Assembly (NCBI GenBank): GCA_963847625.1
Contig: CAWKAR010000025.1
Location: 83,651-147,650 of the forward strand
DNA: 64,000 nucleotides
From: a candidate division FCPU426 bacterium
GTDB taxonomy: Bacteria > Oederibacteriota > Muellerivitia > Muellerivitales > Muellerivitaceae
Direction of reading: 5' to 3'
Shown here: in pieces, positions 901 through 47,037 of the stretch
How positions within the stretch are numbered: the stretch's first letter is position 1
How the letters are laid out: each line of letters begins with the position of its first letter
Notes under the pieces: model-generated
What the model was told of the DNA's origin: nothing
What the model saw: only the letters and a program-made list of their open reading frames with translations
Databases searched by the model: none
Program-made: the position numbers and the translations under genes

Positions 901-939
901 TATTTAAATCCTCAAATTGGGTAGGTAAATCTTCTAGTT

Positions 940-1771: not shown

Positions 1772-2512
1772 TCATTGGTAATGGTTCAGGGCATAAGAGA
1801 AACCTCCAACTTCTTTTAATCTTTTCCTGAACGCCTCAACAATAGCATCATTAGCATCAGGCACTTTTTTCATCCAACCAAACAAGGTGCTTTGAGTTTC
1901 ATATACTGCTTTTTTCCAAGAATCATTGCCCCAAAAAGCATCCATTCTTGCGGCTTGTGAAGGTTCTACCATTTCTGGATTTTTCCAAAGAACATTTTGA
2001 TTCATATCCATTACTGGGAAATTAAGAAAGATCTCGATACTCTTCATTTGTCCAGCTTTATGAATCACATCCCATTTTAAATGAAGACCATAGGGGTCAA
2101 GTAGGCATAAGCCACGACGATAATCTTCGAAACGGATTTTAGGGAAAATTTCATTTAATAAAATTTCATTACAATTACCTTCAAATACTGAAACGTTAGT
2201 ATTTTCTCGGGTTAATAGTTTCAGCAATTTGAATTTATCTTTATTTATGTCGATAAGATAAAGCTTTTTAAAAGGGGGTTCTATATTCAAGGCATTTAAA
2301 GGACTACCAGGTATAAACTTTCCGCTTTCTCTTGAGAGATGGACCCCTGCACCCGCAAAAGCATCTAGATAGGCATGTTCTAGGTTTTTTTGGGAAGTTA
2401 ATATCTTCGAATATGCCGCAGCGTAATCTTTAACAATATCGAGTTTGATTTCGGACCAATAATTAATCGTGTCAAAATTAAGCATCCCGAGTTCCATAAG
2501 TAAGTGCAACAC
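1772..2512 (-). CDS. TcmP-like 'three-Cys-motif partner' protein, the usual partner of DUF5131; native start probably Met at 2485
   Basis: About 250 aa with DAFAGAG and LLDPYG motifs, immediately upstream of and co-oriented with the DUF5131 gene. The first 9 codons of the called ORF lie inside the IS30 copy. Confidence 0.55.
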   Translation of the reverse strand: MLHLLMELGMLNFDTINYWSEIKLDIVKDYAAAYSKILTSQKNLEHAYLDAFAGAGVHLSRESGKFIPGSPLNALNIEPPFKKLYLIDINKDKFKLLKLLTRENTNVSVFEGNCNEILLNEIFPKIRFEDYRRGLCLLDPYGLHLKWDVIHKAGQMKSIEIFLNFPVMDMNQNVLWKNPEMVEPSQAARMDAFWGNDSWKKAVYETQSTLFGWMKKVPDANDAIVEAFRKRLKEVGGFSYALNHYQ

Positions 2513-3540: not shown

Positions 3541-3566
3541 TATAAGAAAAAAGCTTAGAAACATTT

Positions 3567-3953
3567 TCAATTTTTTACCTCTTCTGGATTCTGTTTCGGG
3601 TTTTCCAATGATTTTTTAGATGGGCTTGCATCAGAATTAATAATAGAAATAGGAGGTAATTTTCCCTTACTTTGAGCCGCTACTGCCAAAATATTCAACA
3701 ATCTTTTATTATCACTATTTTGTAATTTATTTTCTCCCTTTGTTCGATCATCTTCACATTTTTCCACAATAGCTATTGAGGTATTTATGAAGATTGCAAC
3801 GGCAAAAAATACCCACCCAATTAGAGCAACACTTCCAAAAATATTTTTCCAAATAGTTTTTAACCTGTACTTTTGTCTGTTTTCAATTTTACCTGCCACA
3901 AAACTAAGAAATGGGGAAAGGAAAGATTTTATTATTACAATAAAATATCCCAT
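3567..3953 (-). CDS. Hypothetical membrane protein
   Basis: 128-aa ORF with two hydrophobic segments; no recognisable family. Confidence 0.3.
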   Translation of the reverse strand: MGYFIVIIKSFLSPFLSFVAGKIENRQKYRLKTIWKNIFGSVALIGWVFFAVAIFINTSIAIVEKCEDDRTKGENKLQNSDNKRLLNILAVAAQSKGKLPPISIINSDASPSKKSLENPKQNPEEVKN

Positions 3954-4293
3954 GTGAAAAACTCCAATGTGAATTTAAACCTTTCTCTGGTTTCTGTAAC
4001 TATAAGCTTTATTTTGAACATAAATTACTAAATTTGATACTGGCCCACACTGGTTAAAAGATAGAACTTTCTAAGTTTTATTTTAGACACCGCAAAATTA
4101 ACCAATTATATTTTCCATTTTAATTTCCTTGGCAACAATATCAACATGATCACCTTCTATAAACTCTTTTTCTGAACAACATTTTTTAAACTTTCATGTG
4201 TGGGCATTCTTCCGAATCAATATTTTTACCGCAAATGTTACATTCCACACGATCTATTATTGACCTTCCCCCAATGTTTGATCCAAATTTAAG

Positions 4294-5124
4294 TTAGTTA
4301 AGGCCCAACTTTTCGGCCTTTGCTTCCATTGGGGTTTTTCCCCCCAAACTGCTGTGCGGTCTCTGCCAGTTATACACCTGCCTCCACCAATCCACGACTA
4401 CCTGGGCCTCCGCTTTTGAAAGAAAAATTTCTTGGTTCAGGCACTCATCCCTAAACTTTCCGTTGAAACTTTCGATGAATCCATTCTGCCATGGACTCCC
4501 TGGTTCGATATATAGCACCTCTACGCCCTTCTCCTCAAGCCAGTTCCTCAGTTCTTTCGCCACGAACTCTGGCCCGTTGTCCACCCGCAGGCACTTTGGT
4601 GTCCCGTACTCCGTCATCAACTCGTCCAGCGTCTCCAGCACGTCCCGGCTTCTCATTCGCTTCTCCGCCCGGATCTCCAAGCATTCCCTAAATCCTTCAT
4701 CCAACACCGTCAAAAACTTCACCTTTCCCCCGAACCATGTCAGGTCATGCACGAAGTCCATCGTCCACACCTCGTTGGAACCCAAAGCCGGGTGGGGCCT
4801 TCTCCATTCCGTCGGAACCCTCTTCTTCCTGGGTCTCCTGCGCGGTAATTGAAGCCCTGCTACCTGGTAGAGCCTCTCCACCCGCTTGTGATTCACATCA
4901 AGGCCTCTGCGTTCCAACATCCACAACATCCGAGGGCTTCCGAAACGTCGGTTTCTTTGCGCTAACTTAACCATTTCCTGCAGGATCACCTGGTTCAACG
5001 GATCTTCTGGCTGGGCCTCATATCGAAAACTCGATCGATTTACCCCAAGAACATCACAGGCTCGTCTTTCCGGTACTTCCTGAGCCTTCAGGGCTTCCAC
5101 CATGCCTTTTTGCTCCTCGATCAA
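4294..5124 (-). CDS. IS3 family transposase OrfB (rve DDE integrase), expressed by -1 frameshift from OrfA
   Basis: 276 aa with integrase core YIEPGSPWQNGFIESFNGKFRDECL. Confidence 0.85.
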   Translation of the reverse strand: MIEEQKGMVEALKAQEVPERRACDVLGVNRSSFRYEAQPEDPLNQVILQEMVKLAQRNRRFGSPRMLWMLERRGLDVNHKRVERLYQVAGLQLPRRRPRKKRVPTEWRRPHPALGSNEVWTMDFVHDLTWFGGKVKFLTVLDEGFRECLEIRAEKRMRSRDVLETLDELMTEYGTPKCLRVDNGPEFVAKELRNWLEEKGVEVLYIEPGSPWQNGFIESFNGKFRDECLNQEIFLSKAEAQVVVDWWRQVYNWQRPHSSLGGKTPMEAKAEKLGLN

Positions 5125-5390
5125 TACCCCTTTTTTTTTATGTGCTCTTGGAGAACCTGAATAGCCAGGGCCTGATCACCCGCTAACTGCTTGAGTTTCC
5201 GGTTTTCTTCTTCCAGCTGTTTGATGCGGTGGACTTCGGAAACTCCAAGGCTTCCGTACATGCGTTTCCAGCGGTAGTAAGTCTGCTCGGAAATGCCATG
5301 CTTTCGGAGAACTTCCTCAACGGCGGGAGCTTTCTCCGCCTCGCGGAGAATAGCCACTATCTGCTCAGATAAAAACCGTTTCTTTGCCAT
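5121..5390 (-). CDS. IS3 family transposase OrfA (HTH/leucine zipper)
   Basis: 89 aa, MAKKRFLSEQIVAILREAE... typical IS3 OrfA; ends in the A9G slippery run (plus strand T9 at 5131-5139). Confidence 0.85.
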   Translation of the reverse strand: MAKKRFLSEQIVAILREAEKAPAVEEVLRKHGISEQTYYRWKRMYGSLGVSEVHRIKQLEEENRKLKQLAGDQALAIQVLQEHIKKKGY

Positions 5391-5437
5391 CTTTCCCCTC
5401 CCGATCTATAATCCAAAACTAACATATTTTTGGATCA

Positions 5438-6494
5438 GTTTTCGGGGGAAAGGTCAACCTTAAACTCCCAAGGCCATAGAACGCGCAAAGGAAGAAAATG
5501 GGAAACCAACGCCATCCATTATATTTTGAGAAATGAAACTTATACTGGGGTTTTGATCTTTAATAGGGCTCATAAAAATTCAGTAAAACCCATAGAACGT
5601 CCTGAAAGCGAAACAATCCGCATTGAAAATGCCCACCCCGCCATTATTGACAGAAAAACTTTTCTTTCTGCCCAGTTTTTCATAAAGCTAAGAAGTCCTA
5701 AGGTTGTTCACCCGCGAACTATCCATAGCGACTATATTCTAAGCAGTTTCCTTTTATGTGGAGAATGCGGTTCTCATATGGTTGGAACTACCGCCAAGGG
5801 TTCTAAATTTTTTTATTATTCCTGCCGGAATCACTTAAGAAGGGGTTCTCATGGATGTGGGCAAAAATCTATCAACAAGGCCAAACTTGAAGAAATGGTT
5901 TTCACGCAACTTAGAAACCGCATTTTGACTGAAGAAAATATCTCAGAGTTAGTCAAACTGATTAATAAAGACCTTTCAGCTTATAAACGCGATTATTCAA
6001 ATCTTTTGAAAGAAAATGATTCCCGAATTTTAAAAGCCAGGGAAAGCCTTCAAAAACTTTACTACGCCCTTGAAACTGGAAAGCTTGACCTTGATGACCT
6101 TGCCCCAAGAATCAAAGAATTGCGTTCTCAAATTTCCCAATTAGAGCAGGAAAAAACCAAGATCGAATCAGAGGCAAATGAGCCAACCTTGGAAATAAAC
6201 GCCTCGGAAATCGGCCCTTACGTTGAAGATTTGCGGGGACTATTGGAGAAAGGCACCATTACAAAGCGGAAAGGTTTCTTAAAGTCTTTTATAAAGCAAA
6301 TTGAATATAGCCACCAAAAAGGCGGCTCTATTGAATACACCATTCCTCTTGTGAAAAAACCTAATAACGAATTATCAAATATTGAAGTTCTGCCTATTAA
6401 CCAAAATGGCGGGGTTGACGGGGCTAGAACACGCTTTCTCGCACCTGACAAACAAAATTTTCAGATGAACCAACTTCTTATTCCTGGGTTCTGA
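5438..6494 (+). pseudogene. Large serine recombinase remnant lacking the N-terminal resolvase catalytic domain
   Basis: Recombinase domain (ILRNETYTGVLIFNR), zinc ribbon (CGECGSHM...YYSCRNH...HGCG) and coiled-coil, but no catalytic Ser domain. The reconstructed pre-insertion frame begins MFSGERST at the IS3 insertion site. Confidence 0.65.
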
Positions 6495-6503
6495 CTTGGT
6501 TTT

Positions 6504-6563
6504 TCTCTTCCGCACGCCAACGTTTGGAAACTTCCGCCTCGATGCCGGCATGGTCATTAACCA
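6504..6563. repeat. 60-bp direct repeat copy 1, a duplicate of an internal part of the ubiX coding end
   Basis: About 92% identical to 19463-19522; encodes VNDHAGIEAEVSKRWRAEEK versus ubiX VYDHVGIEAEVSKRWRAEEK; similarity stops abruptly on both sides. Confidence 0.75.
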
Positions 6564-6612
6564 GGAAATGCCATTACACAGACCTCATAGGTGATCGGTA
6601 CGTGGTGAATCA

Positions 6613-8001
6613 TTAGATGTTCCCAAGATCGATATCCACCCACGAGGGCGTCGGGGTGACCGTCGGCTGGGGCGAAGAAGCCTTTTGGGTTTCGGGGGAT
6701 CCCCTCAAAAAGACCGCGAAATAACCCGCTTCCCCATTCGAGAAAGCCTCGGCGGGATAATTGGTCTGGATTCCGCTGTTCACCGCCTTGGAAATCCACG
6801 CAAGCGACGACCGGATGGCGTCGAGCCGGTAAAAGTTGGGGATCAAGTCGAAGGACCGCTTCACATAATCCTTGTAGGACTTAAATTGGTAAGGCCCGGC
6901 GGGATCCGCGAAGGAGGCCGCAATGGGGGCATGGATATCCAGTAGCATCATATTCTTGATCCCCATTTCCCGGCTGAGGGCCGCCAGAACGGAGGGGGGC
7001 GTATACAGGGTCCAAATCACCCCAAAGCGGTGGTGTTTGTCGGTGAATAGGTAGGACCGGGCCACGTCGTCATAAAAGGAACAAAAAGCATTGGGATACT
7101 CGTCCGGGCCCGGCTTGCCGTTTTCCACCACCATGAAGCGGTTTTGAACGAAGGTTTTTATTTTTTTCTTATCCGGCAATTTTCGGTAGGTGCCCAGGGC
7201 CATGTGTCCGTCCTGGTACAAGGTGAAGGTGGCCATCTCGGGCTGGGGCGGAAGGAAGGTCCGGGAATCAAAACGGAACCCGGCATAACGCATTTGTTTT
7301 TCCGGCACGCCCCAATTGACCACGTTGTCGACGCGGTCGAAGATGCCGTTGAGGATGCCCAGGAGCCCGGTGGAGTCCTGGATCAAGGCGTAATCGGTTT
7401 TCCCCCCATTCCTTTCCTCCCGGGTCGCCATAGGAAGCCATTCCCCCATGTGGGTCCGGTCCCCGCCCTTGAACTGGATTTTCCCGGGGTAATAAAGGCA
7501 CCGGGCCTGCGCCTGGTCGAAGGAAAGGTAAAAAACCATGGCCCTCTCCCGCATCAGGCCCCCATTGTCCAAAAGAAGCTTTTTTCCCCTGGGACCCAAG
7601 CCCTTAAAGCCCTTGACCCTCGCGAGAAACCGCTTGAAATACTTTTTGCCCCCCGCGTGATACTTGACCCGAAACCCGGCGTAAACGGCGGTCGCGGCGG
7701 GGCTGTTGGCCTTGAAATCCACGGCGCATGGGGCCGCGAGCGGGAACCCTCTCTTGTTCGCCCGGGCCTGCCGTGCCCAATCCACGTGAAGGATGAAGGG
7801 CCGCTCCCTCCTGGTCAAACGCCTGGGATGGGGAATGCGGATTTTGGAAAGTCCCTCGTAAAGCCACTCCCCGGCTTTCTTGTAAAAATAGCCCCGGAAT
7901 TCCGAAACTTCTTTCGCGCTTGCTTTCCCGGCAAGGAATTGGATGAGGCAAAACACCAGTGTCAAAAGGGCAAAGATGAAAATGATTTTATTTTTTTTCA
8001 T
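6613..8001 (-). CDS. Secreted hypothetical protein, last gene of the A2M-LDT-PBP1C operon
   Basis: Signal peptide MKKNKIIFIFALLTLVFCLIQFLAGKASA (alternative upstream start at 8025); about 62% GC; overlaps the pbpC stop by 14 bp; no family recognised. Confidence 0.5.
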   Translation of the reverse strand: MKKNKIIFIFALLTLVFCLIQFLAGKASAKEVSEFRGYFYKKAGEWLYEGLSKIRIPHPRRLTRRERPFILHVDWARQARANKRGFPLAAPCAVDFKANSPAATAVYAGFRVKYHAGGKKYFKRFLARVKGFKGLGPRGKKLLLDNGGLMRERAMVFYLSFDQAQARCLYYPGKIQFKGGDRTHMGEWLPMATREERNGGKTDYALIQDSTGLLGILNGIFDRVDNVVNWGVPEKQMRYAGFRFDSRTFLPPQPEMATFTLYQDGHMALGTYRKLPDKKKIKTFVQNRFMVVENGKPGPDEYPNAFCSFYDDVARSYLFTDKHHRFGVIWTLYTPPSVLAALSREMGIKNMMLLDIHAPIAASFADPAGPYQFKSYKDYVKRSFDLIPNFYRLDAIRSSLAWISKAVNSGIQTNYPAEAFSNGEAGYFAVFLRGSPETQKASSPQPTVTPTPSWVDIDLGNI

Positions 8002-10357
8002 TCTCGATTTTCTTGTCGTAAACAAGGATATTCACTTTGTCCGCGCGGCCCTGGGAATCCAGCACCGATACTTCCCATTTCCCCTGTTCCGGGCTCCAGA
8101 AGAAAAGCTTATCCGGCTTTCCTTGCGCGATGAGCCGGCCATTCACGAACCAGTAAACCTGGTCCACGTCGGGGCCGGCCTGGACCGATAACGTCATCCG
8201 CTGGCTTTCCAGGGGTATCCCCTGCTGGATCTCGTATTTCCCCTCGGATTTGGGCGATTGGATATGGGGCGTGAAGCGGGAGAAGAAATAAGCGCAATCC
8301 GGATTATGCCGGGGGATGGCCTCGAATTTTTTCCCGTGGCTCCTGAGATACCGCGTCACGTCCGGTGGCCAGATCTCGAAAATTTTGGAGTAGTATTCCT
8401 CTGGCTTGCCCGTCATGCAATAACGGCAAACTTCCTTTCCGTCTTTTTTCCTGATCCAAACCCTTCGGTGGACCTGGCAGGGATGGTTGTCGCTGACGGC
8501 CGGGATGAACATATCCTCGATCACGTCCTTGCAATCGTCTCCGGCCGGCTGGCCCGAGAGGGCGCATATTTTGCGGAATTGGACTCCCGGCGGCCTCTGG
8601 AACCAGGAGTCATTGGAGCGGGTCAAGGCGTTGAAGAGATTGATGACCACCGGGGCCGCGGCGTCGTGGCCGATCAAGGCGGGAGACCCCTGGTTATCCG
8701 TGTTGCCGAGCCAGACCCCGATGGTGTAATCCGGGTTATAGCCGACGCACCAGGCGTCCCGGTGGCCGAAGGAGGTGCCGGTTTTAAAGGCCACCTTTCC
8801 GCGGGTGGGTGAAAATTCCCAGGAAGCGGGAATATCCGTTCTTTCCACCTTGGCCAGCATTTCGGAAATCATGTAGCTGGATTCCCGGGAAAGCACTTCC
8901 TTTCCCTTCTCCGGGCCTTGGGTTTCATCCTCAAAAAATCTCAGGCTTCTCATCTTCCCGCCGTTGGCCAGGGCCGCGTAAATCCGGACCATTTCCTCCA
9001 CCGTCATGGGATAGGCCCCTAAAACCACCGACAGACCCGGTTCCAACTGGCCCCTTTCCCGCCCGATACAGCCGGCTTCCTTGATCCAAAATTCCAGGCC
9101 GTCGTTTCCTATGGATTCCAGGCTTGATTCCAACCCCACCGCGGGAATGTTCAAGGAGCGGGCCAAGGCGTCTTCCGCCGGAATGAGCCCCCCGTACTTC
9201 CCCTCGTAATTGGCCGGTTTAAAGCCGCCGTAATCGCGCGGGATATCGAAAAGCGTGGTCTTGGGTGTGATCAACCCGTGGTCCATCGCCAAGCCATACA
9301 GGAAAGGTTTCAAGGCCGATCCCGGGGAGCGGGGAATGTTGGCGCCGTTTACCTGCCCACCCCTGGGGTCGTGGAAATCCGGGCTTCCCACGTAAGCCAC
9401 CACTTTCATCGTGTGGTTGTCCACCATGATGACCGCGCCGTTATGGACCCCCTGGTTTCTGATGGGCGCTATGGCGCCTTCCAGCATTTTCAAGGCCAAT
9501 CCCTGTAAATTGGGTTGGAGGGCCAGCTGGACCACTCCCGGGGCATGGCTGGATAGATGGGCCGCTCGAGCCACCAAATGGGGAGCCGGATTGGGATTCA
9601 AGTACCGGCCTTTGGGCAGGATGGAATGGAAAGCTTCCTCCGCCTCGATTTGGGGTGGCTTCACGATGGGAAGGATTTGCCCAAGGACCTTGTCCCTTCC
9701 CTCCCTCGCCTTTTCGGGGAACCGGTCGGGACGCCGCGCCGCGGGCGACCGGGGAAGGCTGATCAAAAGCGCGGTTTCACCCCAGGAAAGGAGCTTGGCC
9801 GGCTTGCCGAAATAAAGAAGCGACGCCGCACCCACCCCCTCGATGTTGCCCCCCATGGGAACGCTGTTCAGGTAGAACTCGAGGATCTGTTTCTTGGAAT
9901 AGCGGGCCTCCAACTGCATGGCCCGGAAAGTCTCGATTCCCTTGGCCCAGAAGGTCCGGGGCCTGCGGTCCATCAGCTTGGCCACCTGCATGGTAATGGT
10001 GGAAGCCCCCGAGAGGATTTTATGGCGGGTCAAATTCAGGACGAGGGCCCGGACCAATGCCGCCGGATTCACCCCGTAATGCCAGTAAAACCACCGGTCC
10101 TCGTAGGCCATAAAACCCCGGATGACCTGGGGTGAAATTTCATCCAGTTTCAAGGGAAGGCGGTACTTGCCACTTTTGGAAAGGGTGAGCCGCAATAGGC
10201 TTCCGTCGGAGGCCAGGTAGGCCGTGGAATAGTCGCCGTGAAGTTTCTTAACCGGAAGGGGCACAAGACGGAGAAGGACGTAAAACCCGGCCAGGCACAA
10301 CAAAAAACGGAGGATGAACCGTTTGTGATTGCTAAAGGGCCATTTCATAGTTTGCAT
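7988..10357 (-). CDS. pbpC: Penicillin-binding protein 1C (transglycosylase/transpeptidase with PBP1C C-terminal domain)
   Basis: 789 aa; N-terminal TM anchor; GT51 motifs (RFYWHYGVNP, GASTITMQ); transpeptidase SxxK/KTG (AFKTGTS); C-terminal BiPBP_C-like domain. Confidence 0.85.
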   Translation of the reverse strand: MQTMKWPFSNHKRFILRFLLCLAGFYVLLRLVPLPVKKLHGDYSTAYLASDGSLLRLTLSKSGKYRLPLKLDEISPQVIRGFMAYEDRWFYWHYGVNPAALVRALVLNLTRHKILSGASTITMQVAKLMDRRPRTFWAKGIETFRAMQLEARYSKKQILEFYLNSVPMGGNIEGVGAASLLYFGKPAKLLSWGETALLISLPRSPAARRPDRFPEKAREGRDKVLGQILPIVKPPQIEAEEAFHSILPKGRYLNPNPAPHLVARAAHLSSHAPGVVQLALQPNLQGLALKMLEGAIAPIRNQGVHNGAVIMVDNHTMKVVAYVGSPDFHDPRGGQVNGANIPRSPGSALKPFLYGLAMDHGLITPKTTLFDIPRDYGGFKPANYEGKYGGLIPAEDALARSLNIPAVGLESSLESIGNDGLEFWIKEAGCIGRERGQLEPGLSVVLGAYPMTVEEMVRIYAALANGGKMRSLRFFEDETQGPEKGKEVLSRESSYMISEMLAKVERTDIPASWEFSPTRGKVAFKTGTSFGHRDAWCVGYNPDYTIGVWLGNTDNQGSPALIGHDAAAPVVINLFNALTRSNDSWFQRPPGVQFRKICALSGQPAGDDCKDVIEDMFIPAVSDNHPCQVHRRVWIRKKDGKEVCRYCMTGKPEEYYSKIFEIWPPDVTRYLRSHGKKFEAIPRHNPDCAYFFSRFTPHIQSPKSEGKYEIQQGIPLESQRMTLSVQAGPDVDQVYWFVNGRLIAQGKPDKLFFWSPEQGKWEVSVLDSQGRADKVNILVYDKKIENEKK

Positions 10358-10603
10358 TACAGCGTTTTTTTATGGGACAGGCTATCCTTTTTTCCCAATA
10401 GTTGTTAAATGAGCAATCCGCATATTACAGGGACAAGGAAATAACGTGCTTTGCCGCATTGACCTAACAGTTGAGATTCGCAAAGCTTTAAACAATATTT
10501 AGTGGACAAAGTAAAGTGCTCGAAATAAATCGTCTTTAAGCTTTGATGATTCTTCTAATACGCCTACCCGTCTCGGACAAGTCCAAAATTCAATTCCCTC
10601 AAT

Positions 10604-11166
10604 TTAGTTCTCTTTTATCACAACAATAGTCCCTATCTTGCAATAAGTTTTAATTTCATCTATTTCTTCGTTTGTGACGGCAATACATCCCTTTGTCCAA
10701 TCAATAAAATGATGCAAGAAACCTAACCATCCGAGACCCTTCTTGAGTCCATGAATGCCTACAATGCCGCCTAATTTTGTATCACTCGGTGGAATTTTAT
10801 GACTCTGTTGGGCTTTTATAATATTTCCAAATTCATTTTGATGAATAACTCCATCGTGAAAACCTTTCAGGGCATCCGCTTCATTGGGATAACTGAGATA
10901 AATAAAAAAATGAAAATCGCTGGTATTGTTCATCGCAACAACTCTATACACCCCAACAGGCGTTTTATTGTCACCGGCAACTTGTTTGGCACCAGCGCCT
11001 CCTTTGCCAATCGAACACTTGTATTGTTTAAAAATTTGGCCGCCTTTTTTACTTTAAGGGCATGTTCCGATTTAATGATTTCTAAAGAAAAATCCTTGGC
11101 GTAAATCAATCCATCAACTGAGTGTAAGAAAATTGAAAAGAAGAAAATAAATTTAAGATATTTCAT
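10604..11166 (-). CDS. L,D-transpeptidase (YkuD domain) with a frameshift in a T6/A6 run (plus strand 11045-11050)
   Basis: N-terminal signal peptide MKYLKFIFFFSIFLHS; after a 1-nt shift the frame reads KGGQIFKQYKCSIGKGGAGAKQVAGDNKTPVGVYRV...HG...WTKGCIAV (catalytic HG/SHGC-type). AT-rich (about 37% GC) inside a 62% GC block. Confidence 0.7.
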
Positions 11167-11203
11167 GGATGGTATTTTCAAGTTGGTATTTTTAGGGGCG
11201 CTT

Positions 11204-14200
11204 TTAATATTTCGCGGGAGCAATATTAAGCGTTTGGCCCTCGTTGGATCGCCCGAAGATTTCAGGGTCGTACATGGCTTCGGCCTCCAAACCAGGCACC
11301 TGGAACGATCCGGGCGTGACCGCCCGGACGCTGTAGGAGAAGGTCTGGTCCCCGTCCACGTCCTTCGAGAAGAGAAGAACCCGGTCATCCCTGAAATCCT
11401 GGAAGACCGGCGAGAAGCTGCATTCCGGCTCGAACGAAAGGTTGCCCCGCGAGGAAAGGCGCGGATTGTCCACCTCGAACCCGGCCGGCAGGAGATCCAC
11501 CACCACCAGGTTGTCCAGCGGCTTGGTGCACTTCACGCGCAAGGTCACCACCACCAATTGGCCCTGGGAAATCGACCCCAGGTTGATGGTATTCCCGTTC
11601 TCATCCCTGTACTCGCGGCTGACGGTCAGGCCATTCGCGACCGATTCCTTTTCCGATTTCAGCTTGGTGCCCTCGGCCATGAGATGGTAATAAAGGTCGC
11701 GGTCGCCGGTATTCTTCAGGTCAACGTCCTTGCCCGAAATCTTCTCGTCCTTCACCACCGCCGTCTCCCCGCTCAATTCGGCGGGGGCTTCCCCCTTCAC
11801 GGACCATTGGGCGCTCAAGGGATAGTTCTGGGTGGTGGCCCGGACCGCCTTCCCAACAGCCATGAAACAGAGGGCGTCCTCCTGGGTCGTGCCGTACCAG
11901 CCGTGCCCGAATTCCTTCAGCTTCTTGCCGAACTCGATGATGAGCTTGGGGATCTCCGGGTTCTTGGGGTCCGCCTCGGTCATGGCCAAAAGGTAAAGGG
12001 CCATTTCCCGGTTGGGGGAGAACCAATCCCCGTTCATCAACCGGGCCAGGCTGGTGGGAAGGTAATGCGCGGGAAGAAGGGATAGGGCGGTCGTGCGATC
12101 GCCCAGCGCGGAATAGGCCCGGGACAGGTAACAGCGCTCGCTCAACCGGCGCGCCTTCGGGTCCTGCATCTGGTCCTTCATGGCGGCCATCGACTCGGGA
12201 TCGGGCCGGTCGGCCAGGACTTTCAGGTAAAGCACGTAGGCGCTGTCCCCGATCTCGACGTTTTGCTTTCGGCGGTCCAGCCTCCCACCCCCTTGCCGGT
12301 GACCTTGATGGCCCCAAGCCGGTTCATGATCCTATCCAGGACATTCTCGTTGACCTGGTAGCCCTGCTTTTTCGCCGTGAGCAGGAATTCGGAGACGTAA
12401 TTGGACAAGTATTCCCCGCCGCCCTCCTCCTGGCCTGGCCAGAGCGCGAAGTCCCCGTCGGACAACTGCATCTTGCCCAGGTCGTCAATGGCGTCCTGCA
12501 CGTACATTTCCACCGCGTTGGCCCTTCCGCTGAAACGCCCCGTCAAAAGGCCCATATCCTTGAAGAAAAGAAGAGGGAAAGCCTGTGAGGTCCTCTGCTC
12601 GGCACAGCCATAGGGGTAATGGATGAGGTAATCCATGCTCCCCAGGAACGTCAACAAGGGGCTGGAAGAAACCGTCATGCGGACCTTTTGTCCTTGCCGG
12701 ATGAAGCCGCCGGGAACCGACAGGACCTGGGTCCCGCCCGCCCCCAACTGGCCGAAGCTGATTTGCGTCGTCAAGGGATTGCCGGGCCTCACCGCCAGCT
12801 CGGTTTCCACGTCGAAATCGTTTCCATCCTCATCCGTGGCGGTCACCTTGAAATGCGCCACGCCAGCGTCCATTTGGGCCTTGGCGTGGAACAGGATCTG
12901 TTTTTGCCCCTCCTCGCCCAGGCTGATATCCTGTTTTTTCTCGCCGTCGACCGCGACGGGACCGCTGGCGGAGAGGCTGACCTTGATGCTCTGGGGTTTC
13001 TTCGTGTTGTTATAGACCAGGACCGGCATGTCAATGTGGTCCCCGGGCGCGAGAAACCGGGGAAAGGACGGCTCCACCACCACCGGATCCGCCACCTTCA
13101 CGTGGAAGGCGGAAGCCCCGAATTTATTCGCCTGCACTCCCAGGGCCATGACCCTTACTTCCCCGTGGAACTTGTCCGTCGGGAAGTGGTAGCTGACCTT
13201 CCCCTCCTTGTCCGCCGTCAGGATGCCGGAGAAGAGGGCGAAGGATTTCACCCGTTTGGCTTCGATGGGGTTCAAATGGCGGAATTGGAAGGATTCACCC
13301 TCGTCCCCGCCCACCGCGTCCTTGCGGTCCAGGTCGGGAAGGATGTCCTCGAACAAGCTCAAGGTGGAGGTCGTGAGGCCCCGCTTGCGGTAGAAATACT
13401 TGAAGGGGTCGGGCGTGGTGAAAGCGATGATCTGGAGGATTCCCTCGTCCACCGCGGCCAGGACCACGCTGGCCCCCGGCGTGCCGGTGGACAGGTTCAC
13501 GTCGATGCCGTCCTTGGACTTTACGGACTCGGGCGCTTCCCACTTGAAGTCGATCTCATGGCTGGTGGTGTCCATCGCCAGGGTCGCGATCCCGAAGGAA
13601 GCCATCGGCATGGTCCTTAATTCCTCATTGGGCTTGCGCACCAGGAGCCCCACCACGTAGGCGTTGGGCATGTAGGCGGTCTCGACCGGGGGAAGGCTCA
13701 GCACGTTGAGCCCCGCCGCAACCGGCACCGTCGAGGTGTAAAAAACCCTCTCCCGTTCGATGGAAAGGATCAGCCTTCCGGCGAAGGGCGCGCGCACTTC
13801 CAGCTTGGGGATCTCGCCGGACTGGTATTGGGTCTTGTCGAGGTTGAGGGACAGCTTGTCCGGCTCGCCCAGGTCGGCGGATTCCTGCTGGTTCTCCTCT
13901 TTTTCCTCGGGTCCGGACACCGCCACCATGACGGAACTGCGCATGGACTCCTCGTTGCCCAGGTAGATGGTGTATTCCCCCGGCTTATCCGGCGTGAAGG
14001 TGTAGGAACCCTTTCCGTCCACGTTGACTTCTTTGCCGTCCACCACCTGCTCGTAATAGGCCGACTCGTAGCCGCGTCCGGACCATCCGCTCCGCCTGAA
14101 AATGGAATACCAGACTTTGCGCTTGACGAGAAGGATGGCTTTTTCCACCTTGGTCGGGTCGCCGTCCGGGGTGATGGCCACGTACTTGATGTGGACTTCC

Positions 14201-17200
14201 TTATTGGGGGCCGATTCCTTACCTTCCTCGCACTTGAGGCCCAGGTAATAGGGATAGCGGTGGACCCGGATGGCGGCGTTGGCGCCGACGGGCCTCCCCC
14301 CGGTGTCCAACACCTCGGCATAGACCTCAGCCTGGAGCATGGAAGGAGGAAGCATGGAGATGGGCACGGGTAATTGCACGTCAAAATTGCCCGCCGCGTC
14401 CGTCGACCCGTCCGGGACCTTCAAACTTTCGCCCGTGAACTGCCGGGTGGGGTCGGAAAAATGGTAGCTTTTCCATTTCTTGTCCGTGAATTCAATCGGG
14501 CTCAATTGGACGGCGGTTCGCACCTTCAGGCTCACGCCCGGCGCCCCGAAGAGCTGGCGCACCGCGACCCGGAAGGAGAGTTGCTCCCCGGGATTGGCGG
14601 TTTTCTTGGCGGGACGCACCTCGACCTTGATCTTGTTGGGGATGAATTCCTCCACCTTAATGGAGGTGGACGCCAGGTGGACCCCGTTCTCCAGTCCCAG
14701 CTCGACGTTCAGCATGCCGGTGGTGATGTCCTCCTTAATGGGAAAATTGAAGGTCGCCATGCCGTAGTCATGGAGTTTGGCGGTGAGTTTGGCCACCTGG
14801 TTCCCGTTTTCATCCTTGATGACGAGGTTCACGGGAAGGTCCTCGGGGATATCCAGGTCCGCCCGCCTCACGACCGCCGTGAAATTGGCCTTGTCCCCGG
14901 GGCGGTAAAGGCCCCGGTCCGAGGTCAGGAACGCGTCCCATCCGGTGGATTGGAAAGGATCCCCGCTCACGTCGAAGCGCGATTGGTTCAAGGCCGGCTG
15001 GTCCAGGCGGAGGTAGGACCAATCGTCCCCCAATTGGGCCACGACGACATAGGCGTTGAAATGGTAGGGGTTGTTCTTCCAGTCCTTGAACCAGACCCGT
15101 CCCTCGGGATCCGTTTCCTTTTCCTGGATGACCTGGTTAGTGTCGGAAATCAGCTGTAATTTCACCCCAACCGCCGGGGTCAGCCTGGAGATGGAAAGCA
15201 CCTGCACCAAAAGGTCGTCGCCCGAGTACTTCAGCATCATGCCCAGGTCGGTGCAAAGGAAGGAACGGGAGTCCCGTCCGCCGCCGTTGGCTCCGTTCAG
15301 GGAAACCACGAATAGCCCCTTATAAGGCTGGCTGTGCCATTGGCTGAAATCCAGGTCCGTTTCCGTTTCCTGGTTGATCTGCCCTTCGTTCACCTTCACG
15401 TTTCCGCCCCAGACATGGGCGCCCAACCCCGCGGTCGAGCCAGAATCGGACTGGTAGTTATTCTCGCTGGGTTCGTCCCCTTCACCCTCATCCTCGTCCT
15501 CTTCCTGTTGCCGCTGGAAATAAGCGCGGCGCTGGGGCCGGCGGTAAGAGTGCCGGTAGTAGTAGTTGGGGTAACTGCGCCAGTTCTTCAGGAAATCGAC
15601 GATGTTGTTGCGGAACACTTTTTCGACGCCGACGGAATAATTGTCCAGGTTCATGGTTTTAACCGAGACAATCTTTTTTCCCTCCAGAGGGATCAACCGC
15701 CCGTTATCGCCGAAACGCACGTAGGGCTCGATATCTTCCAGACGGATATCCTGGTCGCTGGCATGCTCCAGGATTTCCCCGGAAATGGCGCGCAGGCCCT
15801 CCTTCACGTGGATTTTGTAGTTGATGTTGGGTTGGAAATCCGCTTTCAAGACGGCGTAGCAATATTCCGTATCCACCTTGAAGGGAATCGCCGGTTCGAT
15901 GGACACGTTGTTGCGCACTTGGGAGGAAGAAGCCGGAAGCGTGAACAGGATGGAGATCAGCGTGTTTCCCGGAACATGGTGGAGCTTGATCCCCTCCACC
16001 AGCATCTTGGGCTTGGCGGGAAGGGTGATGGTGCTTTGGTACTTGTCGGCCAGGGGCTTCCCGCAATCCACGCAGGACAAGCCCGCCGCCACGGTTACCG
16101 TCAGGGTCTGGGGTTCGGTTTCACGCACCAGCCCCCCCGCCTTGAAGAAAAACCGCGTGGGAAGGGTTCCCTGTTCCAGCTCGTAGTTCAGGGAGCTTCC
16201 CGCCCGGGATACGGAAAGGCTCTGTTTGAGCAGGTTCATGTCCACCGGATAGTTGAACTCGATCTCGCCCACCAGCTCTTTTTCCGTTCCCTTGATGAGG
16301 TCGTAGGTATAGAAAAGCCGGCTGGAAACCACCTTCATGGCTTCGGTCGAAAAAGTGGTATTGGAGCTTTTTTCCAGGAAAAATTGTTTCGAGGAAAGCT
16401 TACCCGAGACGTTCAAGTGCACCTGGTAAGTGGTGGCGGGTTTCAGGGGAGCCGCGGGGGTGAAAACCAGGGTCGTGGAATCCTCCAGGCGGCTGGTTCC
16501 GGGCAGGGGGGGTGTAATCTCGAACGCGGAGTCCAAGGCGCTGATGACTTGGACGTCCCCGGAGAATTTGGCCCGGATGACCGTATTGGCCGAGGTCACC
16601 ATTCCCCGGGGGGTAAAACTGATGATATGGGTGGTGAAAGTATTATAGATCAAAAGATAAATCAGCCAGGCCGCGGCCAGGCACGCCAATATTAGGGCGG
16701 CCTTCCGGGCCAGGGGTTTCTTGGATAACTTCAATACGCTTTCCCCGCCTTTGGCTCCTTTTTGCTTGAGGAATCGGGCCGCCTTCTGGAAAAAAGGGCT
16801 TTGCCGCAGAATTTTCCATTTGGAACGCCAATCCAGGTCCGGCAATCCGTCCTTCTTGGCGATTTTTTCCGAAATTCCATAAGACTCGTAAAGACGGGTC
16901 AGATAGATAATCAATACTTGCAGGGACCAAGCCGGGTTTCTTTTGAGGAGGGCGAAAGGGATGGGGAGAAGGGCGTAGAGCCAGATCCAAGCCCGGAGGT
17001 TGCGGTGCTTCGTTTCCCGCATCCTTTCCCAAAACACCAGGAACAGCCCGGAAAGGATGAGGTGCAGCGCCAGCATCCAATTGTTTCTCTCGAAAAAATA
17101 GGGGGAATAAAAAGGGTTCATGAGGAACGTCAACCCGCCTACGGTGTAAAAAGCGAGAGCGCGGATGAAGGTTTGGGGTAATTTCAGGATTTGGGATCGG

Positions 17201-18186
17201 ACCTGGGCGGTTAAAACCGTCAGGACGAGGATAACCATCGGGATGATCAGGGAACCGGTCTGGTTTTGAATGTAAATAAATCCCAAGAGCGAACCCAGGC
17301 TCAGGAAAACTTCCTTCGCGTGGGGTTTCAGCCAGGGATTCCAGCCCCAGAGCAAACCCAAAACCAGGATTTGGAAGGGCCAGCCGAAATTACCATGGAA
17401 GAAGTAATAATATGGAAGCATCGGGACAACGGCGAAAAGCGATAGATAAAGCCGCCCCCGGGTGGCATTCGCTTCCTTCAACTTTTCCCACAAAAGAAAA
17501 ACCAGGGCCGAGAGCAGGAAATGGTGGATCAGGACGACCGGACCCCACCCTTTAATGACCTGTTGAACCCCGCGGACCGTTTCAAAGATGGGAAGTTCCG
17601 GCCAGTAGCGGTAGATCCAGTCCGTGAAATAAAACAGGACAAAGGCTTTTAGGATTTCGGGGTCCCGGCGGAATAAGAACCGGCGCAGCAGGGGGGAGAC
17701 GCCCCAGAAAATGATGGAAATCCAGTAAACGGGGGGAAGCCCCATGAGGCAAACCGCGAAGGCGGCCGCCGTGAATACCGGCGGAAGAATATTGGAGTGG
17801 AATTTTTCGAGCGCCCGGATTTTTTTCAAATCATCCCGGACCATCTCCCATCCCAAAAGAATCGTGGAATACACCACCAGGGCCAGCGCCGTGATCCAGA
17901 CAATCTTCAGGTGGGAGCTGCTCGTCGGGACCTTATCGAAAAATTTCGGGGTCAGAAAGGAAAAGATCATCATGAGGGAAAAACCCTCAACCGCCCGGAA
18001 AGGATACTTCAGGTAAATCTTGCGCAGGAGGCCGACCGCCATGAACAACGGCAGGAACAGCCACAAATTTTTATTTTGGATCAGGAGGACGGCATTGGGG
18101 TGGTTCATCCAATTGGGAATGATTGCGACAAGGGCGATTAGAACGGTGATTCCAAACCAGGCGTTTAATATTTTCCTGGGAATCAT
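11204..18186 (-). CDS. Alpha-2-macroglobulin family protein (YfhM-like) fused to an N-terminal polytopic membrane domain of about 500 aa; frame broken once near 12289-12293
   Basis: Thioester motif GCAEQ near residue 1850; C-terminal thioester-domain remainder and receptor-binding-like domain continue in ORF 11204-12235 (QNVEIGDSAYVLYLKVLADRP after a 1-nt shift in the C5/G5 run); about 12-14 predicted TM helices in the first 500 aa. Confidence 0.8.
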
Positions 18187-18230
18187 AAAGCACCTCGCGG
18201 AACGGACAAACCGGCTTATATAATAAAGAG

Positions 18231-19367
18231 ATGAAACAAAAATTGATTTTCTGCAACCTTGTCATTCTTCTTGTCCTGGCCTCTCGGGTAGGTCACGGCC
18301 AGGAAAAAAACGCGTTCCTTTCGGTTCGTATCCTTGAAAGACTAAAACTGCAGGAATTGGAGGTTCAGTCCCCCGCGAATCATGGCGTTTGGAACCGAAT
18401 CAAATTAGCACCGGGCCAAATGTCCGTCAACGACAAAGCACAAAAAGAGGCCTCCTGGGGCTCTCCGGATTCAACCGTTAAAATAAGGGCTTTAAATTTA
18501 AGGCGAATTTATCCTGGGATGATCGTCATCACAACGCAGGCCGGGGAAAAGGGTCCGGAACTGCTCATTTTAAACCAGGTCTTCCTGGGGGATTACACGG
18601 CTTGTGTCACGGCCTTTGAATCCGGTTATGACCCTTCCCAGCCGGAATACTTGAAGGCGCTGGCGGCCATCATCCGCGCTTACGCCTCCTCACACCGCAA
18701 ACGTCACGACTCCTATGATCTCTGCGACCTCTCCCATTGCCAAGTTTACCAAGGGCTCCCAAGCCATTTCAGTTTTTGGAAGCAAATGGCGGACGCAGGC
18801 ACGTCATTCAGGTTTCCTTCATCAATAGATCCGAAATCCATTTATTTCCACCGCTGTTGCGGAGGTGTTTTGGAGTCAGCGGACCAACTCTGGGGGGGAG
18901 CGCCTTCCGCCAGCCGGACGGGTCCAGATGAGTGGGATGGCAAAACCCTCTGCCAGGACGATCCTCTATTCCAGTGGACTTCCTCGACGGAGGTAAAAAA
19001 CGTCGAGTCCGTCCTGAGAACCATGGCCCGTCTCCCTTCAGCGGCTGTCTTGAGAACATTCAGGGTCGATAAAAAAACAACTCATGGGCGGAACAAGGTA
19101 TTGTCGGCGCGATTCCAAATGCCGGAAGGGGGAACCAGGGAAATCCGCGAAAATGCCATCCATTTCGAATCCGAATTCGGGAAACACTATGGCTGGCGCG
19201 TCTTTCCTAGTGATTTGTTCGGGATCAAACGGGAAGATGATATTTTCAAATTTACCGGTCGGGGTCTTGGCCACGGTGTAGGGCTTTGCCAGTCCGGCGC
19301 CTTGAAACTGGCCCAATTGGGGTGGACCTGGGAAAAAATTCTTAACTTCTATTTTCCTTCAAGGTGA
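18231..19367 (+). CDS. SpoIID/LytB domain protein
   Basis: Signal peptide; conserved SHRKRHDSYDLCDLSHCQVYQG motif of the SpoIID/LytB family. Confidence 0.7.
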   Translation: MKQKLIFCNLVILLVLASRVGHGQEKNAFLSVRILERLKLQELEVQSPANHGVWNRIKLAPGQMSVNDKAQKEASWGSPDSTVKIRALNLRRIYPGMIVITTQAGEKGPELLILNQVFLGDYTACVTAFESGYDPSQPEYLKALAAIIRAYASSHRKRHDSYDLCDLSHCQVYQGLPSHFSFWKQMADAGTSFRFPSSIDPKSIYFHRCCGGVLESADQLWGGAPSASRTGPDEWDGKTLCQDDPLFQWTSSTEVKNVESVLRTMARLPSAAVLRTFRVDKKTTHGRNKVLSARFQMPEGGTREIRENAIHFESEFGKHYGWRVFPSDLFGIKREDDIFKFTGRGLGHGVGLCQSGALKLAQLGWTWEKILNFYFPSR

Positions 19368-19430
19368 CAACCATTCATGGCCGTCTTGAGGATCATAAAT
19401 TTCCAGTTATGCACTTGGCCAAGCATATAT

Positions 19431-20010
19431 TCAGTCATTATTAGCCATTCTAATTTTTTTCTTCTCTTCCGCACGCCAGCGTTTGGAAACTTCCGCCTCG
19501 ATGCCGACATGGTCGTAAACCCGGGCGATGACCGTATCCACAAGATCCTCAATGGTCTTGGGATTGCCGTAAAAGCTGGGAGTCGCCGGGATGACATGGG
19601 CGCCAGCCAGGGTGAGAAGTTCCATATTCTTGATTTGAATCAGGGATAGGGGTGTCTCCCGGGGAACCAATATCAGCTTACGGCGTTCTTTCAAGAACAC
19701 CTCCCCAGAGCGGGTGATCAGGTTATCGGTAATGCCATGGGCCAGCTTCCCCAGGGTGGCGGTGGAGCAAGGAATGACCACCATGGCCTCAAATTTGTTG
19801 GAACCGCTGGCCGAGGGGGCTGTCAGGTCGTTTTCGCCCCATTCCCTCACGTGGGGGGGAGGTTCAGCCCACCCTCATGGGACGCCACGATGCGGGCGGC
19901 GGAGGATACCACCGCGTGCACTTCCCAATCGTCATAGGGAAGGTGTTGGAAAAACCTTCTGGCATAGAGGGTCCCTGATGCGCCCGTCACCGCTACTAGG
20001 ATCTTCTTCA
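19431..20010 (-). CDS. ubiX: Flavin prenyltransferase UbiX, frame broken in the G7 run at 19853-19859
   Basis: N-terminal part MKKILVAVTGASGTLYARRFF (ATG at 20010) and C-terminal part ...MVVIPCSTATLGKLAHGITDNLITRSGEVFLKERRKLILVPRETPL lie in two frames joined at the homopolymer. Confidence 0.75.
19463..19522. repeat. 60-bp direct repeat copy 2 (inside the ubiX coding end)
   Basis: Matches 6504-6563 with 4-5 mismatches. Confidence 0.75.
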
Positions 20011-20259
20011 TGAACAAACCAGTCCCAATTTAGTTTTGTTTGGCCGTCATTGTGCCAATCATCCAAAAAAATTATGGTAAGTATCCCTTTACAACAAGTA
20101 ATAGCAAAAAGACATGGAACCGCCGATCAAACCCGATGGACGCCGATAAGTTTGAGAAAGCCTTAAACTATAGCCGTTATCGGCACGTGCGGAGCACGTC
20201 GGTCGTTATCTGCGGTAAATAAATTTCTTTACGTGTCGTGAAGGTATAGTCACCTTTTT

Positions 20260-22475: not shown

Positions 22476-22833
22476 GTTGAACCCTTCATGATAGTAAGAG
22501 TTTTATTTGCGTAAGTCTTTTCGGTTCGATGTTTGAGCCTGTGCTTAATCCAATTTTTGGTTTTTACCGTTTTAAAAGCCCAATAGAGCTGGGGGAATCA
22601 GCAGGTTAAAAACGAATGACTCAACAATCTCGTTTGAATTTGAACTCAAGGGGTGGCATTTTACGCCAGTTCGGGCAGGGCCTCAATATCCACTTTTCCA
22701 TACTTATACCCAAGTACCTGCCCAGTATGGATTTCGTCAATATCCAGGTGGTTAAAGAACGGTGAAATGAGAAATCCAGGTAATGGCGGGCTTGGCTTGG
22801 CGCACCAAGAAAACATTTTTTTATACTGGAATC

Positions 22834-24078
22834 TTATCGCACGAGCAGGACTCTTTTTATTTTAGTGCCGAAGGGTTCCACGAGGTCAATGAGGTAAACC
22901 CCGCTGGCACAGGGGTCGCCATACTTGTTGGTCCCATCCCATTGGTACGACTGGCTGATGGGAGCTTCGAGTTCTTCGGAAGCGAGCGTTTTAATGTGTT
23001 CGCCGGCCGAATTATAAATCCGCAAGTCGTAACTCCCTGGATACTGGGTATATTCCACGAAAATGGAAACCGGATCCGAGGGATTGAAGGTGTTTTTGGA
23101 CACGTAAAAGACGTCGGCGACGACAGGCGTAAGGGTGATGGTGGGAGTGGCGGTGGGCGTGGGAGTAATCGTAGGGGTGTTCGTGATCGTAAAGGTATTG
23201 GTGATCGTGGGGGTATTGGTAAGGGTGGGGGTGGGCGTGGGGGTGGGCGTCGGGGAGACCGTCGGAGTCATGGTCGGGGTTAAGGTAAAGGTCAACGTAT
23301 TGGTGGGCGTGGGGGTGACCGTCGGGGTGTCCGTCGGAGGAAAGGTCGGGGTGACGGTCGGCGTATTGGTGGGGGTCCCTAACGCGGAACAAGAGTTTAC
23401 GGTATAATTTTTGTATTCATTTTGGTTTGGCGAATTTAAATAGCCGCTCCTGATTCCAACGGCCCCGGTCGTAAAGGTGGAGTCCGTAACGTTAAATATC
23501 AGCTGGTTGCCGTTGCCGTTATTGAAGTTCAAGTAGCACATAAAATTAGTCCCGCAGCAAACGACTGTCATATGGACCCAGGTTCCGACGGTATAGGTTG
23601 GTGTTGACGCGGTGCTTATATAAGACCAACCGCTTGACGAGTGTTTCTCAAACTGCCACTGCCCATAGTTGATTTGAAACGAATAGAAATCCGCCCCGGT
23701 TTGGCCCTTGAAAATGATGCCGAAAATCCCGCCAACTTGCGCGGACATGACATCGCACTGGATGGTGTAGTCGGTCAACGCGGGGTTGAAATTCGCGGGG
23801 GTCACCAAGAATTGTTCGGCACAGTAGGTGGGATTGGCCGTATTGAGCAAAATCCCGCCCGAGGCGCTGAAGTAATTCGTGTAATTCGGGTCCGGAGTCC
23901 CCGGGTCGCCGTAATAAAAATTGTAATTGGAGAGGCTGGCATTCGAGGAATAGTTATCCTGGAAAAGAACCCCCCCGAGGCTTGGGCAACAACCCTGGCC
24001 ATAAGCCAAACCGGAGGATCCCGCGAAAATAAGGGCGAATAAAACAGGAAAAGAGAGATGTTTACAGATAGTTTTCAT
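22834..24078 (-). CDS. Secreted protein: lectin/jelly-roll-like domain, Pro/Thr-repeat linker, conserved C-terminal sorting-like domain
   Basis: Signal peptide MKTICKHLSFPVLFALIFAGSSGLAYG; TPTxTPT linker of about 60 aa; C-terminal domain of about 90 aa (SGVYLIDLV...KRVLLVR) shared with 24397-27966 and 34426-35181. Confidence 0.6.
   Translation of the reverse strand: MKTICKHLSFPVLFALIFAGSSGLAYGQGCCPSLGGVLFQDNYSSNASLSNYNFYYGDPGTPDPNYTNYFSASGGILLNTANPTYCAEQFLVTPANFNPALTDYTIQCDVMSAQVGGIFGIIFKGQTGADFYSFQINYGQWQFEKHSSSGWSYISTASTPTYTVGTWVHMTVVCCGTNFMCYLNFNNGNGNQLIFNVTDSTFTTGAVGIRSGYLNSPNQNEYKNYTVNSCSALGTPTNTPTVTPTFPPTDTPTVTPTPTNTLTFTLTPTMTPTVSPTPTPTPTPTLTNTPTITNTFTITNTPTITPTPTATPTITLTPVVADVFYVSKNTFNPSDPVSIFVEYTQYPGSYDLRIYNSAGEHIKTLASEELEAPISQSYQWDGTNKYGDPCASGVYLIDLVEPFGTKIKRVLLVR
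23130..23345. repeat. Low-complexity coding repeat (ACN-CCN) encoding the Pro/Thr linker
   Basis: Visible periodic ggtgggcgtggg/gtcggggtgac tracts on the plus strand. Confidence 0.7.
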
Positions 24079-47030: not shown

Positions 47031-47037
47031 CATTTGA

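Follow-up and report, generated by a model that had tools for sequence, protein, structure and literature searches.

Cis-mobilizable elements (CIMEs) and their tandem accretion are documented phenomena (PMC5704250; bioRxiv 10.1101/2020.12.28.424599), as exemplified by the ICESt1/ICESt3-CIME arrays at the fda gene of Streptococcus thermophilus (PMC5704250). Flanking repeats containing a gene's 3′ terminus are the usual mark of tyrosine integrases, while elements of serine recombinases have very short flanking repeats and usually disrupt the target gene (PMC5704250). The locus described here lies in a 64,000-nt stretch (the window; positions 83,651 to 147,650 of contig CAWKAR010000025.1, assembly GCA_963847625.1) from a bacterium of candidate division FCPU426, where a 12.9-kb block encoding a bacterial alpha-2-macroglobulin (A2M), the penicillin-binding protein PBP1C (pbpC), a SpoIID-like protein and a secreted protein (sec470) is enclosed by direct repeats of the 3′ end of ubiX, the flavin prenyltransferase gene. 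With a probability of about one half, this segment of native envelope genes entered the 3′ end of ubiX by a single Campbell-type crossover with circular DNA, beside an older, decayed element that targets a tRNA gene. Overall, the locus is not a foreign island: native genes were inserted, in an ordinary way, at a hot spot of recombination within a region that is very plastic and rich in insertion sequences (IS).

By analogy, the block appears to behave like a CIME-type cassette, flanked by att sites and devoid of an integrase. Like CIMEs, it is bounded by attL-/attR-like direct repeats containing the target gene's 3′ terminus, and it has no genes for integration or transfer. As in CIME arrays, a decayed integrative element precedes it in a tandem arrangement, and the newest insert adjoins the target gene. 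Unlike in CIME arrays, the neighbouring element uses a tRNA att and a serine recombinase, so that it cannot be the cis-mobilising partner; the cargo consists of lineage-native, housekeeping-like genes instead of foreign accessory genes, and the block carries no relic of the backbone of an integrative and conjugative element (ICE) or an integrative and mobilizable element (IME). The locus also resembles the islands and prophages of tyrosine integrases, in that the core is the same at both ends, the frame of ubiX is restored with a new tail, and the original 3′ end is displaced to the far side. As in islands at gene 3′ ends, the repeat pair includes the target gene's 3′ terminus and the site is empty in six relatives. 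Unlike tyrosine-integrase islands, the block has neither a tyrosine integrase nor a compositional deviation, and the gene it targets encodes a protein, one of the menaquinone/ubiquinone decarboxylase system.

Direct repeats at the 3′ end of ubiX

The features that define the insertion are as follows (coordinates are those of the window).

6489-6565, minus strand: left repeat, a fragment of the ubiX 3′ end that stands on its own; core at 6503-6547
6566-19447, no strand: inserted 12.9-kb block with a mean GC content of 55.5%, without a recombinase and absent 3′ of ubiX in six relatives
19448-19524, minus strand: right repeat, formed by the 3′ coding end of ubiX; core at 19462-19506
19431-20012, minus strand: ubiX (flavin prenyltransferase), with the stop codon at 19431-19433, split into parts of 54 and 139 amino acids

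The first-pass annotation of this DNA had described near-identical direct repeats around the block, the second copy within the 3′ coding end of ubiX and the first free-standing, and both statements are borne out. A repeat search of the window returned a 77-nt direct repeat of 87% identity (6489-6565 and 19448-19524; spacing 12,959 bp), within which a 45-nt core (6503-6547 and 19462-19506) is identical at 44 of 45 positions. This core occurs twice in the whole 64-kb window, with no third copy there and no copy found in viral contigs, and it was never matched in a shuffled-sequence control, with 0 matches expected by chance. The left copy reads in frame as DHAGIEAEVSKRWRAEEK, followed by a tail and stop codon of its own, and its counterpart within ubiX is DHVGIEAEVSKRWRAEEK. 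Dyad symmetry, RNA structure and a terminator were sought in the repeat without any significant result, and Rfam gave no match over window positions 1-30 kb.

Only one of the mismatches between the two copies falls within the 45-nt core, as opposed to nine within the 32 flanking nucleotides (Fisher p = 0.0012), so the arms around the core are about 28% diverged. A near-identical core between heterologous arms amounts to an att-like anatomy, unlike that of a uniformly decaying duplication. The tails that follow the core also differ in kind. The left tail (6478-6502) reads KNQVRTQE before its stop codon and is of the ancestral type (QVR-T/S-xE), comparable with KKQVRSGEESAF and stop in the closest relative (locus L002) and with EQVRSEE and stop in protein P0131, while the right tail (19431-19461; KKKIRMANND and stop) is unlike the tail of any relative compared. 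On the inner side, the arm of the left copy reads LVNDHA, where all relatives compared have ARVYDH(A/V). An ancestral-type left tail, a unique right tail and a deviant left inner arm together form the hybrid pattern expected after a Campbell insertion.

Soundness of the assembly

Since the source is a metagenome-assembled genome and homopolymer errors occur in the window, short shared sequence might have given rise to chimeric joins at the two junctions (near 6.5 kb and 19.4 kb), a concern already raised with the first-pass annotation. Against this stand two independent short-read contigs of the Logan collection from run ERR10755942, L040 (window 14653-5444; one mismatch and one indel) and L041 (window 20162-14624; one indel), which match the window at 99.98% and together reproduce both junctions, and the longest exact shared sequence is shorter than 30 nt. 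Chimeric assembly is ruled out by these contigs, and an artefact of this kind is regarded as very improbable.

Homopolymer runs affect the reading of three genes. The frameshift near 12283, which splits the A2M gene, is an error of the window assembly (G3 versus G4), while the C-run of the SpoIID-like gene (18893-18902) has C7 in the window and C6 in the short-read contig, where the gene is split. The split of ubiX is due to a −1 frameshift at a C7 run (19853-19859) present in both the long-read and the short-read (L041) assemblies. Two open reading frames (ORFs) of other relatives, P0129 and P0132 (138 amino acids), start at the same valine. Judged from the sequence, the split may reflect a site of recurrent slippage, programmed frameshifting or a real pseudogenisation.

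The flank of ubiX in relatives

A search with UbiD retrieved 11 loci of candidate division FCPU426 (77-89% identity), among which the gene order asd-(TMEM260/TPR)-truA-ubiD-ubiE-ubiX is conserved. In the six loci that extend beyond ubiX, no A2M, pbpC, SpoIID-like, sec470 or recombinase gene lies past it; the comparison with relatives lacking the block, proposed with the first-pass annotation, thus shows that the block is an insertion. The genes that follow ubiX in five of these loci (L004, L008, L010, L012 and L027), and also in L066, are ubiA, genes of the futalosine pathway (mqn; two radical-SAM genes and a VitK2_biosynth gene) and then queF. Neither ubiA nor the mqn genes nor queF are found anywhere in the 64-kb window, the operon being broken right after ubiX there as well as in L002.

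L002, the closest relative (UbiD 89%), likewise lacks ubiA after ubiX. It contains, 350 bp past ubiX, an 84-nt remnant of a DUF5131 gene with 92% nucleotide identity to the following gene of the window.

940-1659, minus strand: DUF5131 gene (phrog_2045), the sole left-flank sequence common to the window and L002

This remnant indicates that, in the common ancestor, ubiX was already separated from ubiA, with DUF5131-bearing DNA adjoining it. The block would then be either a later insertion specific to the lineage of the window or an insertion that was lost in L002. Downstream of ubiX, L002 also contains two IS1595-family transposase genes and an NHL-repeat protein gene (L002 16619-18523); the presence of the IS1595-family genes implies that the 3′ flank of ubiX is unstable in L002 too.

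Contents of the inserted block

The block contains the three genes listed by the first-pass annotation (secreted protein, pbpC and A2M), all of them present, and in addition a SpoIID-like gene that the list had left out.

6613-8025, minus strand: sec470, a lineage-specific secreted protein with a signal peptide; the called start at 8001 gives 462 amino acids
7988-10357, minus strand: pbpC (PBP1C), with Transgly, Transpeptidase and BiPBP_C domains
10358-11203, no strand: A2M-pbpC spacer of 846 bp and low GC content, which holds a YkuD C-terminal fragment (10604-10951)
11204-18186, minus strand: bacterial A2M, 2327 amino acids after homopolymer repair, with the thioester sequence GCAEQ
18231-19367, plus strand: SpoIID-like gene, divergent from A2M and part of a module conserved in L037 and L039

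The A2M contains bMG3, MG2, bMG5, bait-region, A2M and bMG10 domains and a CxEQ thioester motif and has pbpC as its neighbour, and the two are thus identified as a bacterial type-I (thioester) A2M with its PBP1C partner. As in the yfhM-pbpC pair of E. coli, a thioester A2M gene is followed by pbpC, and the domain types are the same. Unlike the E. coli pair, the A2M possesses an N-terminal extension of about 900 amino acids, the FCPU426 lineage has a divergent SpoIID-like gene as conserved partner, and an 846-bp spacer with a YkuD fragment, the C-terminal part of an L,D-transpeptidase, parts the two genes. The corresponding spacer measures 85 bp in L037, and L036 has in its place a 5-kb insert (731-5884) with a Y1 (IS200-like) transposase; from these sequences, DNA seems to have been inserted repeatedly at this point of the operon.

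The protein sec470 has no match in Pfam or PHROG, and its homologs number only 24, restricted to the lineage and at most 60% identical. A hidden recombinase in the block was considered and ruled out, as Pfam and PHROGs searches were empty and the terminal ORF, sec470, encodes a protein with a signal peptide.

Composition and origin of the block

The first-pass annotation had read the block as a high-GC genomic island, in which A2M and pbpC are horizontally acquired cargo, brought into ubiX through site-specific integration by the neighbouring large serine recombinase (LSR). This account is favoured by the direct repeats containing the 3′ end of the target gene and by the status of the block as an insertion relative to relatives. 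The GC content of about 62% given for the block is too high, the measured mean being 55.5% with a dip to 44% at 10-11 kb, while the value of about 37% for the ribosomal cluster agrees with the 37-40% found. By gene, the GC content is 55.8% for sec470, 57.6% for pbpC, 57-61% for A2M and 51.5% for the SpoIID-like gene, and that of the syntenic neighbours ubiX, ubiE and ubiD is 49-54% (ubiX 54%, ubiD 52%), with 56% for ilvB. The truly deviant parts of the window are those of low GC content, i.e. the ribosomal genes (37-40%; GC at third codon positions, GC3, 0.26-0.34), lepB (36%) and the recombinase remnant with its neighbours (31-40%). Across the window, GC content varies by gene class, with 36-40% (GC3 0.26-0.36) for the ribosomal-protein, secY and lepB genes of positions 50000-64000 and 47-61% (GC3 0.5-0.8) for the biosynthetic and envelope genes of positions 6600-43000, and the loci of relatives have 51-56% GC overall.

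Tetranucleotide z-scores, which had been suggested as a check together with GC content, reveal no foreign signal: the correlation between block and host core (0.52) is comparable to that between the cores of the window and L002 (0.56), while the recombinase-side remnant reaches 0.15. The homologs of pbpC are graded (85, 80, 80, 79, 78, 77, 75, 75, 72 and 69% identity, beyond which the values fall to 56%), and this divergence (85-69%) parallels that of UbiD among FCPU426 relatives (89-77%). The module of divergent SpoIID-like gene, A2M and pbpC is also present in the contexts of three of these homologs (L037/L038 and L039). In a fourth, L036, A2M and pbpC are parted by the 5-kb insert. The modules of relatives have 58-60% GC and the same internal gradient as the block. 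Their flanks vary by locus and contain no ubiX fragment. The annotation had itself named, as evidence that would speak against its island, relatives with the same genes at the same GC content and without the repeat; L037, L038 and L039, at 58-60% GC and in other contexts, are such relatives. The claim that A2M and pbpC are horizontal-transfer cargo is thus not supported, as relatives have the same genes at the same GC content, with a pbpC divergence tracking UbiD. The block genes are native to the lineage, with a GC content normal for it, and foreign composition is ruled out by gene-level GC and GC3, the orthologous modules of relatives and the tetranucleotide correlations.

The serine recombinase remnant and its tRNA att

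The sequence to the left of the repeat contains the following features.

4266-5450, minus strand: IS3-family element with orfA (5121-5390), orfB (4294-5124) and 34-nt inverted repeats (4266-4299 and 5417-5450)
5430-6494, plus strand: LSR remnant with only Recombinase and Zn_ribbon_recom domains (phrog_95 integrase)
6407-6484, minus strand: decayed tRNA-Asp-like remnant, which overlaps the 3′ end of the LSR gene and aligns to the tRNA-Asp(GTC) gene of L068 (9747-9824)

The LSR remnant, whose truncation the first-pass annotation had recognised, lies outside the repeat-bounded segment and is adjoined and cut by the IS3-family element. Its homology begins at 5460, corresponding to residue 206 of the 539-aa protein P0158, so that the equivalent of residues 206-539 remains, while the N-terminal part with the catalytic resolvase domain is found nowhere in the window. 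The full-length homolog closest to the LSR (L068, 65% identity) terminates within a complete tRNA-Asp(GTC) gene encoded on the other strand, and the tRNA relic of the window matches this gene at 26 of its first 28 nucleotides, the remainder being decayed. The relic is recognised by neither ARAGORN nor Rfam, and no second copy was found in the window. The C-termini of many members of the LSR family are the translated reverse complement of the T-arm and acceptor of a tRNA, e.g. GGVDGARTRDLLRDRQAL, GGANGIRTRDLRLDRAAC and GSPGRTRTYNLVVNS. In a metagenome scan with the LSR, which returned only one close relative, on a 1.4-kb contig, 9 of 23 further homolog loci have a convergent tRNA gene (Arg, Asn or Gln) that overlaps or adjoins the 3′ end of the LSR gene (those named being L044, L046, L048, L050, L053, L054, L056 and L064).

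On this comparative evidence, the cognate att of the LSR is a tRNA gene and not the ubiX core, with the relic sitting between the LSR and the ubiX fragment, and the att of this LSR clade would be inside or at the 3′ end of its own gene. The LSR as an integrase for the ubiX core is ruled out, since its nearest full-length homolog overlaps a tRNA-Asp gene and distant homologs have tRNAs at their 3′ ends. A single element comprising both the LSR element and the block was also rejected, since one Campbell event would place the LSR beside an intact ubiX, contrary to the order seen. Nor does the block qualify as an LSR element, as it contains no intact LSR with a catalytic domain and its att is not of the type used by the LSR family.

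SCC (staphylococcal cassette chromosome) arrays are formed in staphylococci at rlmH (orfX) by CcrAB serine recombinases acting on short core repeats, which shows that a serine recombinase is able to generate arrays, recombinase-less cassettes included, where a gene has its 3′ end. This precedent favours the foreign-island account, as does the distance of only 8 nt between the stop codon of the LSR and the 45-nt core. Like an SCC array, the locus has a cassette bounded by gene-3′-end repeats and a serine recombinase nearby, and recombinase-less cassettes occur among SCC elements as well. Unlike those of SCC arrays, the LSR is truncated and belongs to a tRNA-targeting family, nothing ties it to the ubiX core, and this core, at 45 nt, is far longer than the short core repeats of SCC.

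The foreign-island account is further weakened by the lineage-normal GC and tetranucleotide composition of the block, shared with the orthologous modules of relatives, by a pbpC divergence parallel to that of housekeeping genes, by the position of the LSR outside the repeats, without its catalytic domain and with its own tRNA-Asp att relic, by the convergent tRNA genes at the LSR 3′ end in the 9 of 23 further homolog loci, and by the very short repeats that serine-recombinase elements normally have (PMC5704250). The link drawn by the first-pass annotation between recombinase and block thus falls, the family att being a tRNA gene. Of the site-specific integration that it proposed, the insertion at the 3′ end of ubiX between att-like repeats stands, while the island does not, given native genes, a block without a recombinase and an LSR with a tRNA att. 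On composition and origin the foreign island is largely refuted, and as a whole it is considered improbable.

Insertion sequences and other insertions in the region

What had been described as two IS copies at the left repeat are two different elements, the IS3-family element listed above and an IS30-family element, whose true second copy lies elsewhere.

2486-3544, plus strand: IS30-family element; its second copy (47456-48513) is inverted and 99.9% identical

The inverted IS30 copies, 44 kb apart, bracket the whole region and offer ready material for a large inversion. Another insertion specific to the lineage, 7.4 kb long (22476-29913), separates truA from ubiD, an interval that measures only about 0.6-1 kb in relatives; its contents are a LamG/FlgD-Ig protein gene, a gene for an M12B-like metalloprotease of 1227 amino acids (with Big_7 and LamG domains) and an IS of the rve type with 67-nt inverted repeats (28170-28236 and 29499-29565). 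The stretch at 43000-47400 has 30-36% GC, with ORFs (43271-43867 and 44053-44766) that have no Pfam match, and its neighbours are the second copy of IS30 and a fragment (49223-49816) of an IS4-like transposase; from these sequence features, it may be another mobile-element remnant.

A model for the insertion and its alternatives

In the proposed series of events, ubiX would have been separated from its ubiA-mqn operon partners before the arrival of the block, and a decayed integrative element (DUF5131, LSR and tRNA-Asp att relic) would already have been present beside ubiX. The incoming DNA would have been a circle of arm, block and new tail, joined through a ubiX-3′-like segment of about 100 nt. 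One reciprocal crossover within the 45-nt core between this circle and the chromosome, arranged as (…LSR-tRNA relic)-[old tail-core-ubiX], would create a left hybrid site, where the old ubiX tail and core are joined to the incoming arm, and a right hybrid site, where ubiX and core are joined to the new tail from the insert. The resulting order would be (DUF5131...LSR-tRNA relic)-[old tail-core-foreign arm]-block-[new tail-core-ubiX]. The enzyme may have been a recombinase acting in trans or one since lost, or else RecA acting on short homology. We infer from the arrangement a circular intermediate, a single crossover and this order of events, and a single reciprocal crossover would be the only simple topology that gives the order observed. 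The presence of an older element beside ubiX before the block would make the array a case of tandem accretion at one hot spot.

Several observations weigh against insertion by such a crossover. No recombinase domain was detected in the ORFs of the block by Pfam or PHROGs, and no integrase, excisionase or transfer gene or remnant able to act on the ubiX core is found in or beside the block. In relatives, no comparable repeats flank the module, and L065, a locus of the assembly that also contains L039, has sec470 without linkage to pbpC; with native genes and an unlinked sec470, the block is unlike a cassette that circulates as a unit, and it is a composite of native genes. The comparison of tails is based on only about 27 nt. 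Moreover, at 5 of the 45 core positions, both copies share synonymous states absent from L002. These states would fit an incoming core almost identical to the ubiX of the window lineage itself, as after repeated excision and integration within the lineage, and they would be equally compatible with duplication in situ followed by gene conversion.

The latter is part of an alternative in which the native genes were translocated within the genome by homologous and illegitimate recombination, template switching or IS activity, the 3′ end of ubiX being duplicated in the process and its core maintained by gene conversion. Native genes, a block without a recombinase, a different module context in every relative and two core copies closer to each other than to L002 all agree with this local rearrangement, as does the plasticity of the neighbourhood (IS3, two IS30 copies, another IS and the 7.4-kb insertion at 22476-29913). 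However, simple duplication does not predict the sharp discontinuity between core and arms (p = 0.0012), for which an ad hoc conversion tract is needed; no IS is located at either boundary of the block, and the two tails differ as expected for heterologous partners. Local rearrangement is thus considered possible but rather unlikely, and the Campbell-type insertion is retained as the preferred reading.

A bolder variant of the preferred reading takes the 45-nt ubiX core as the att of an unrecognised recombination system of FCPU426, which would act in trans and shuttle integrase-less A2M-PBP1C-SpoIID cassettes, made up of native genes for envelope defence, between chromosomal positions or strains. 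This proposal is quite doubtful; if true, it would explain the different context of the module in every genome examined, as well as the near-identity of the incoming core to the ubiX of the host itself.

Implications for FCPU426 genomes and related recombinases

Contrasts of GC content inside a single window can mislead. In FCPU426, GC content varies by gene class, with a GC3 of about 0.3 for ribosomal genes and 0.6-0.8 for envelope or biosynthetic genes, and what appears as a high-GC island is native to the lineage. The locus documents a hot spot of integration and rearrangement at the 3′ end of ubiX, which broke the ubiX-ubiA-mqn operon. The finding on the serine recombinase clade may be more useful than the block itself, as the overlap between the LSR 3′ end and a tRNA gene could allow the att sites of such recombinases to be predicted by a rule based on sequence only.

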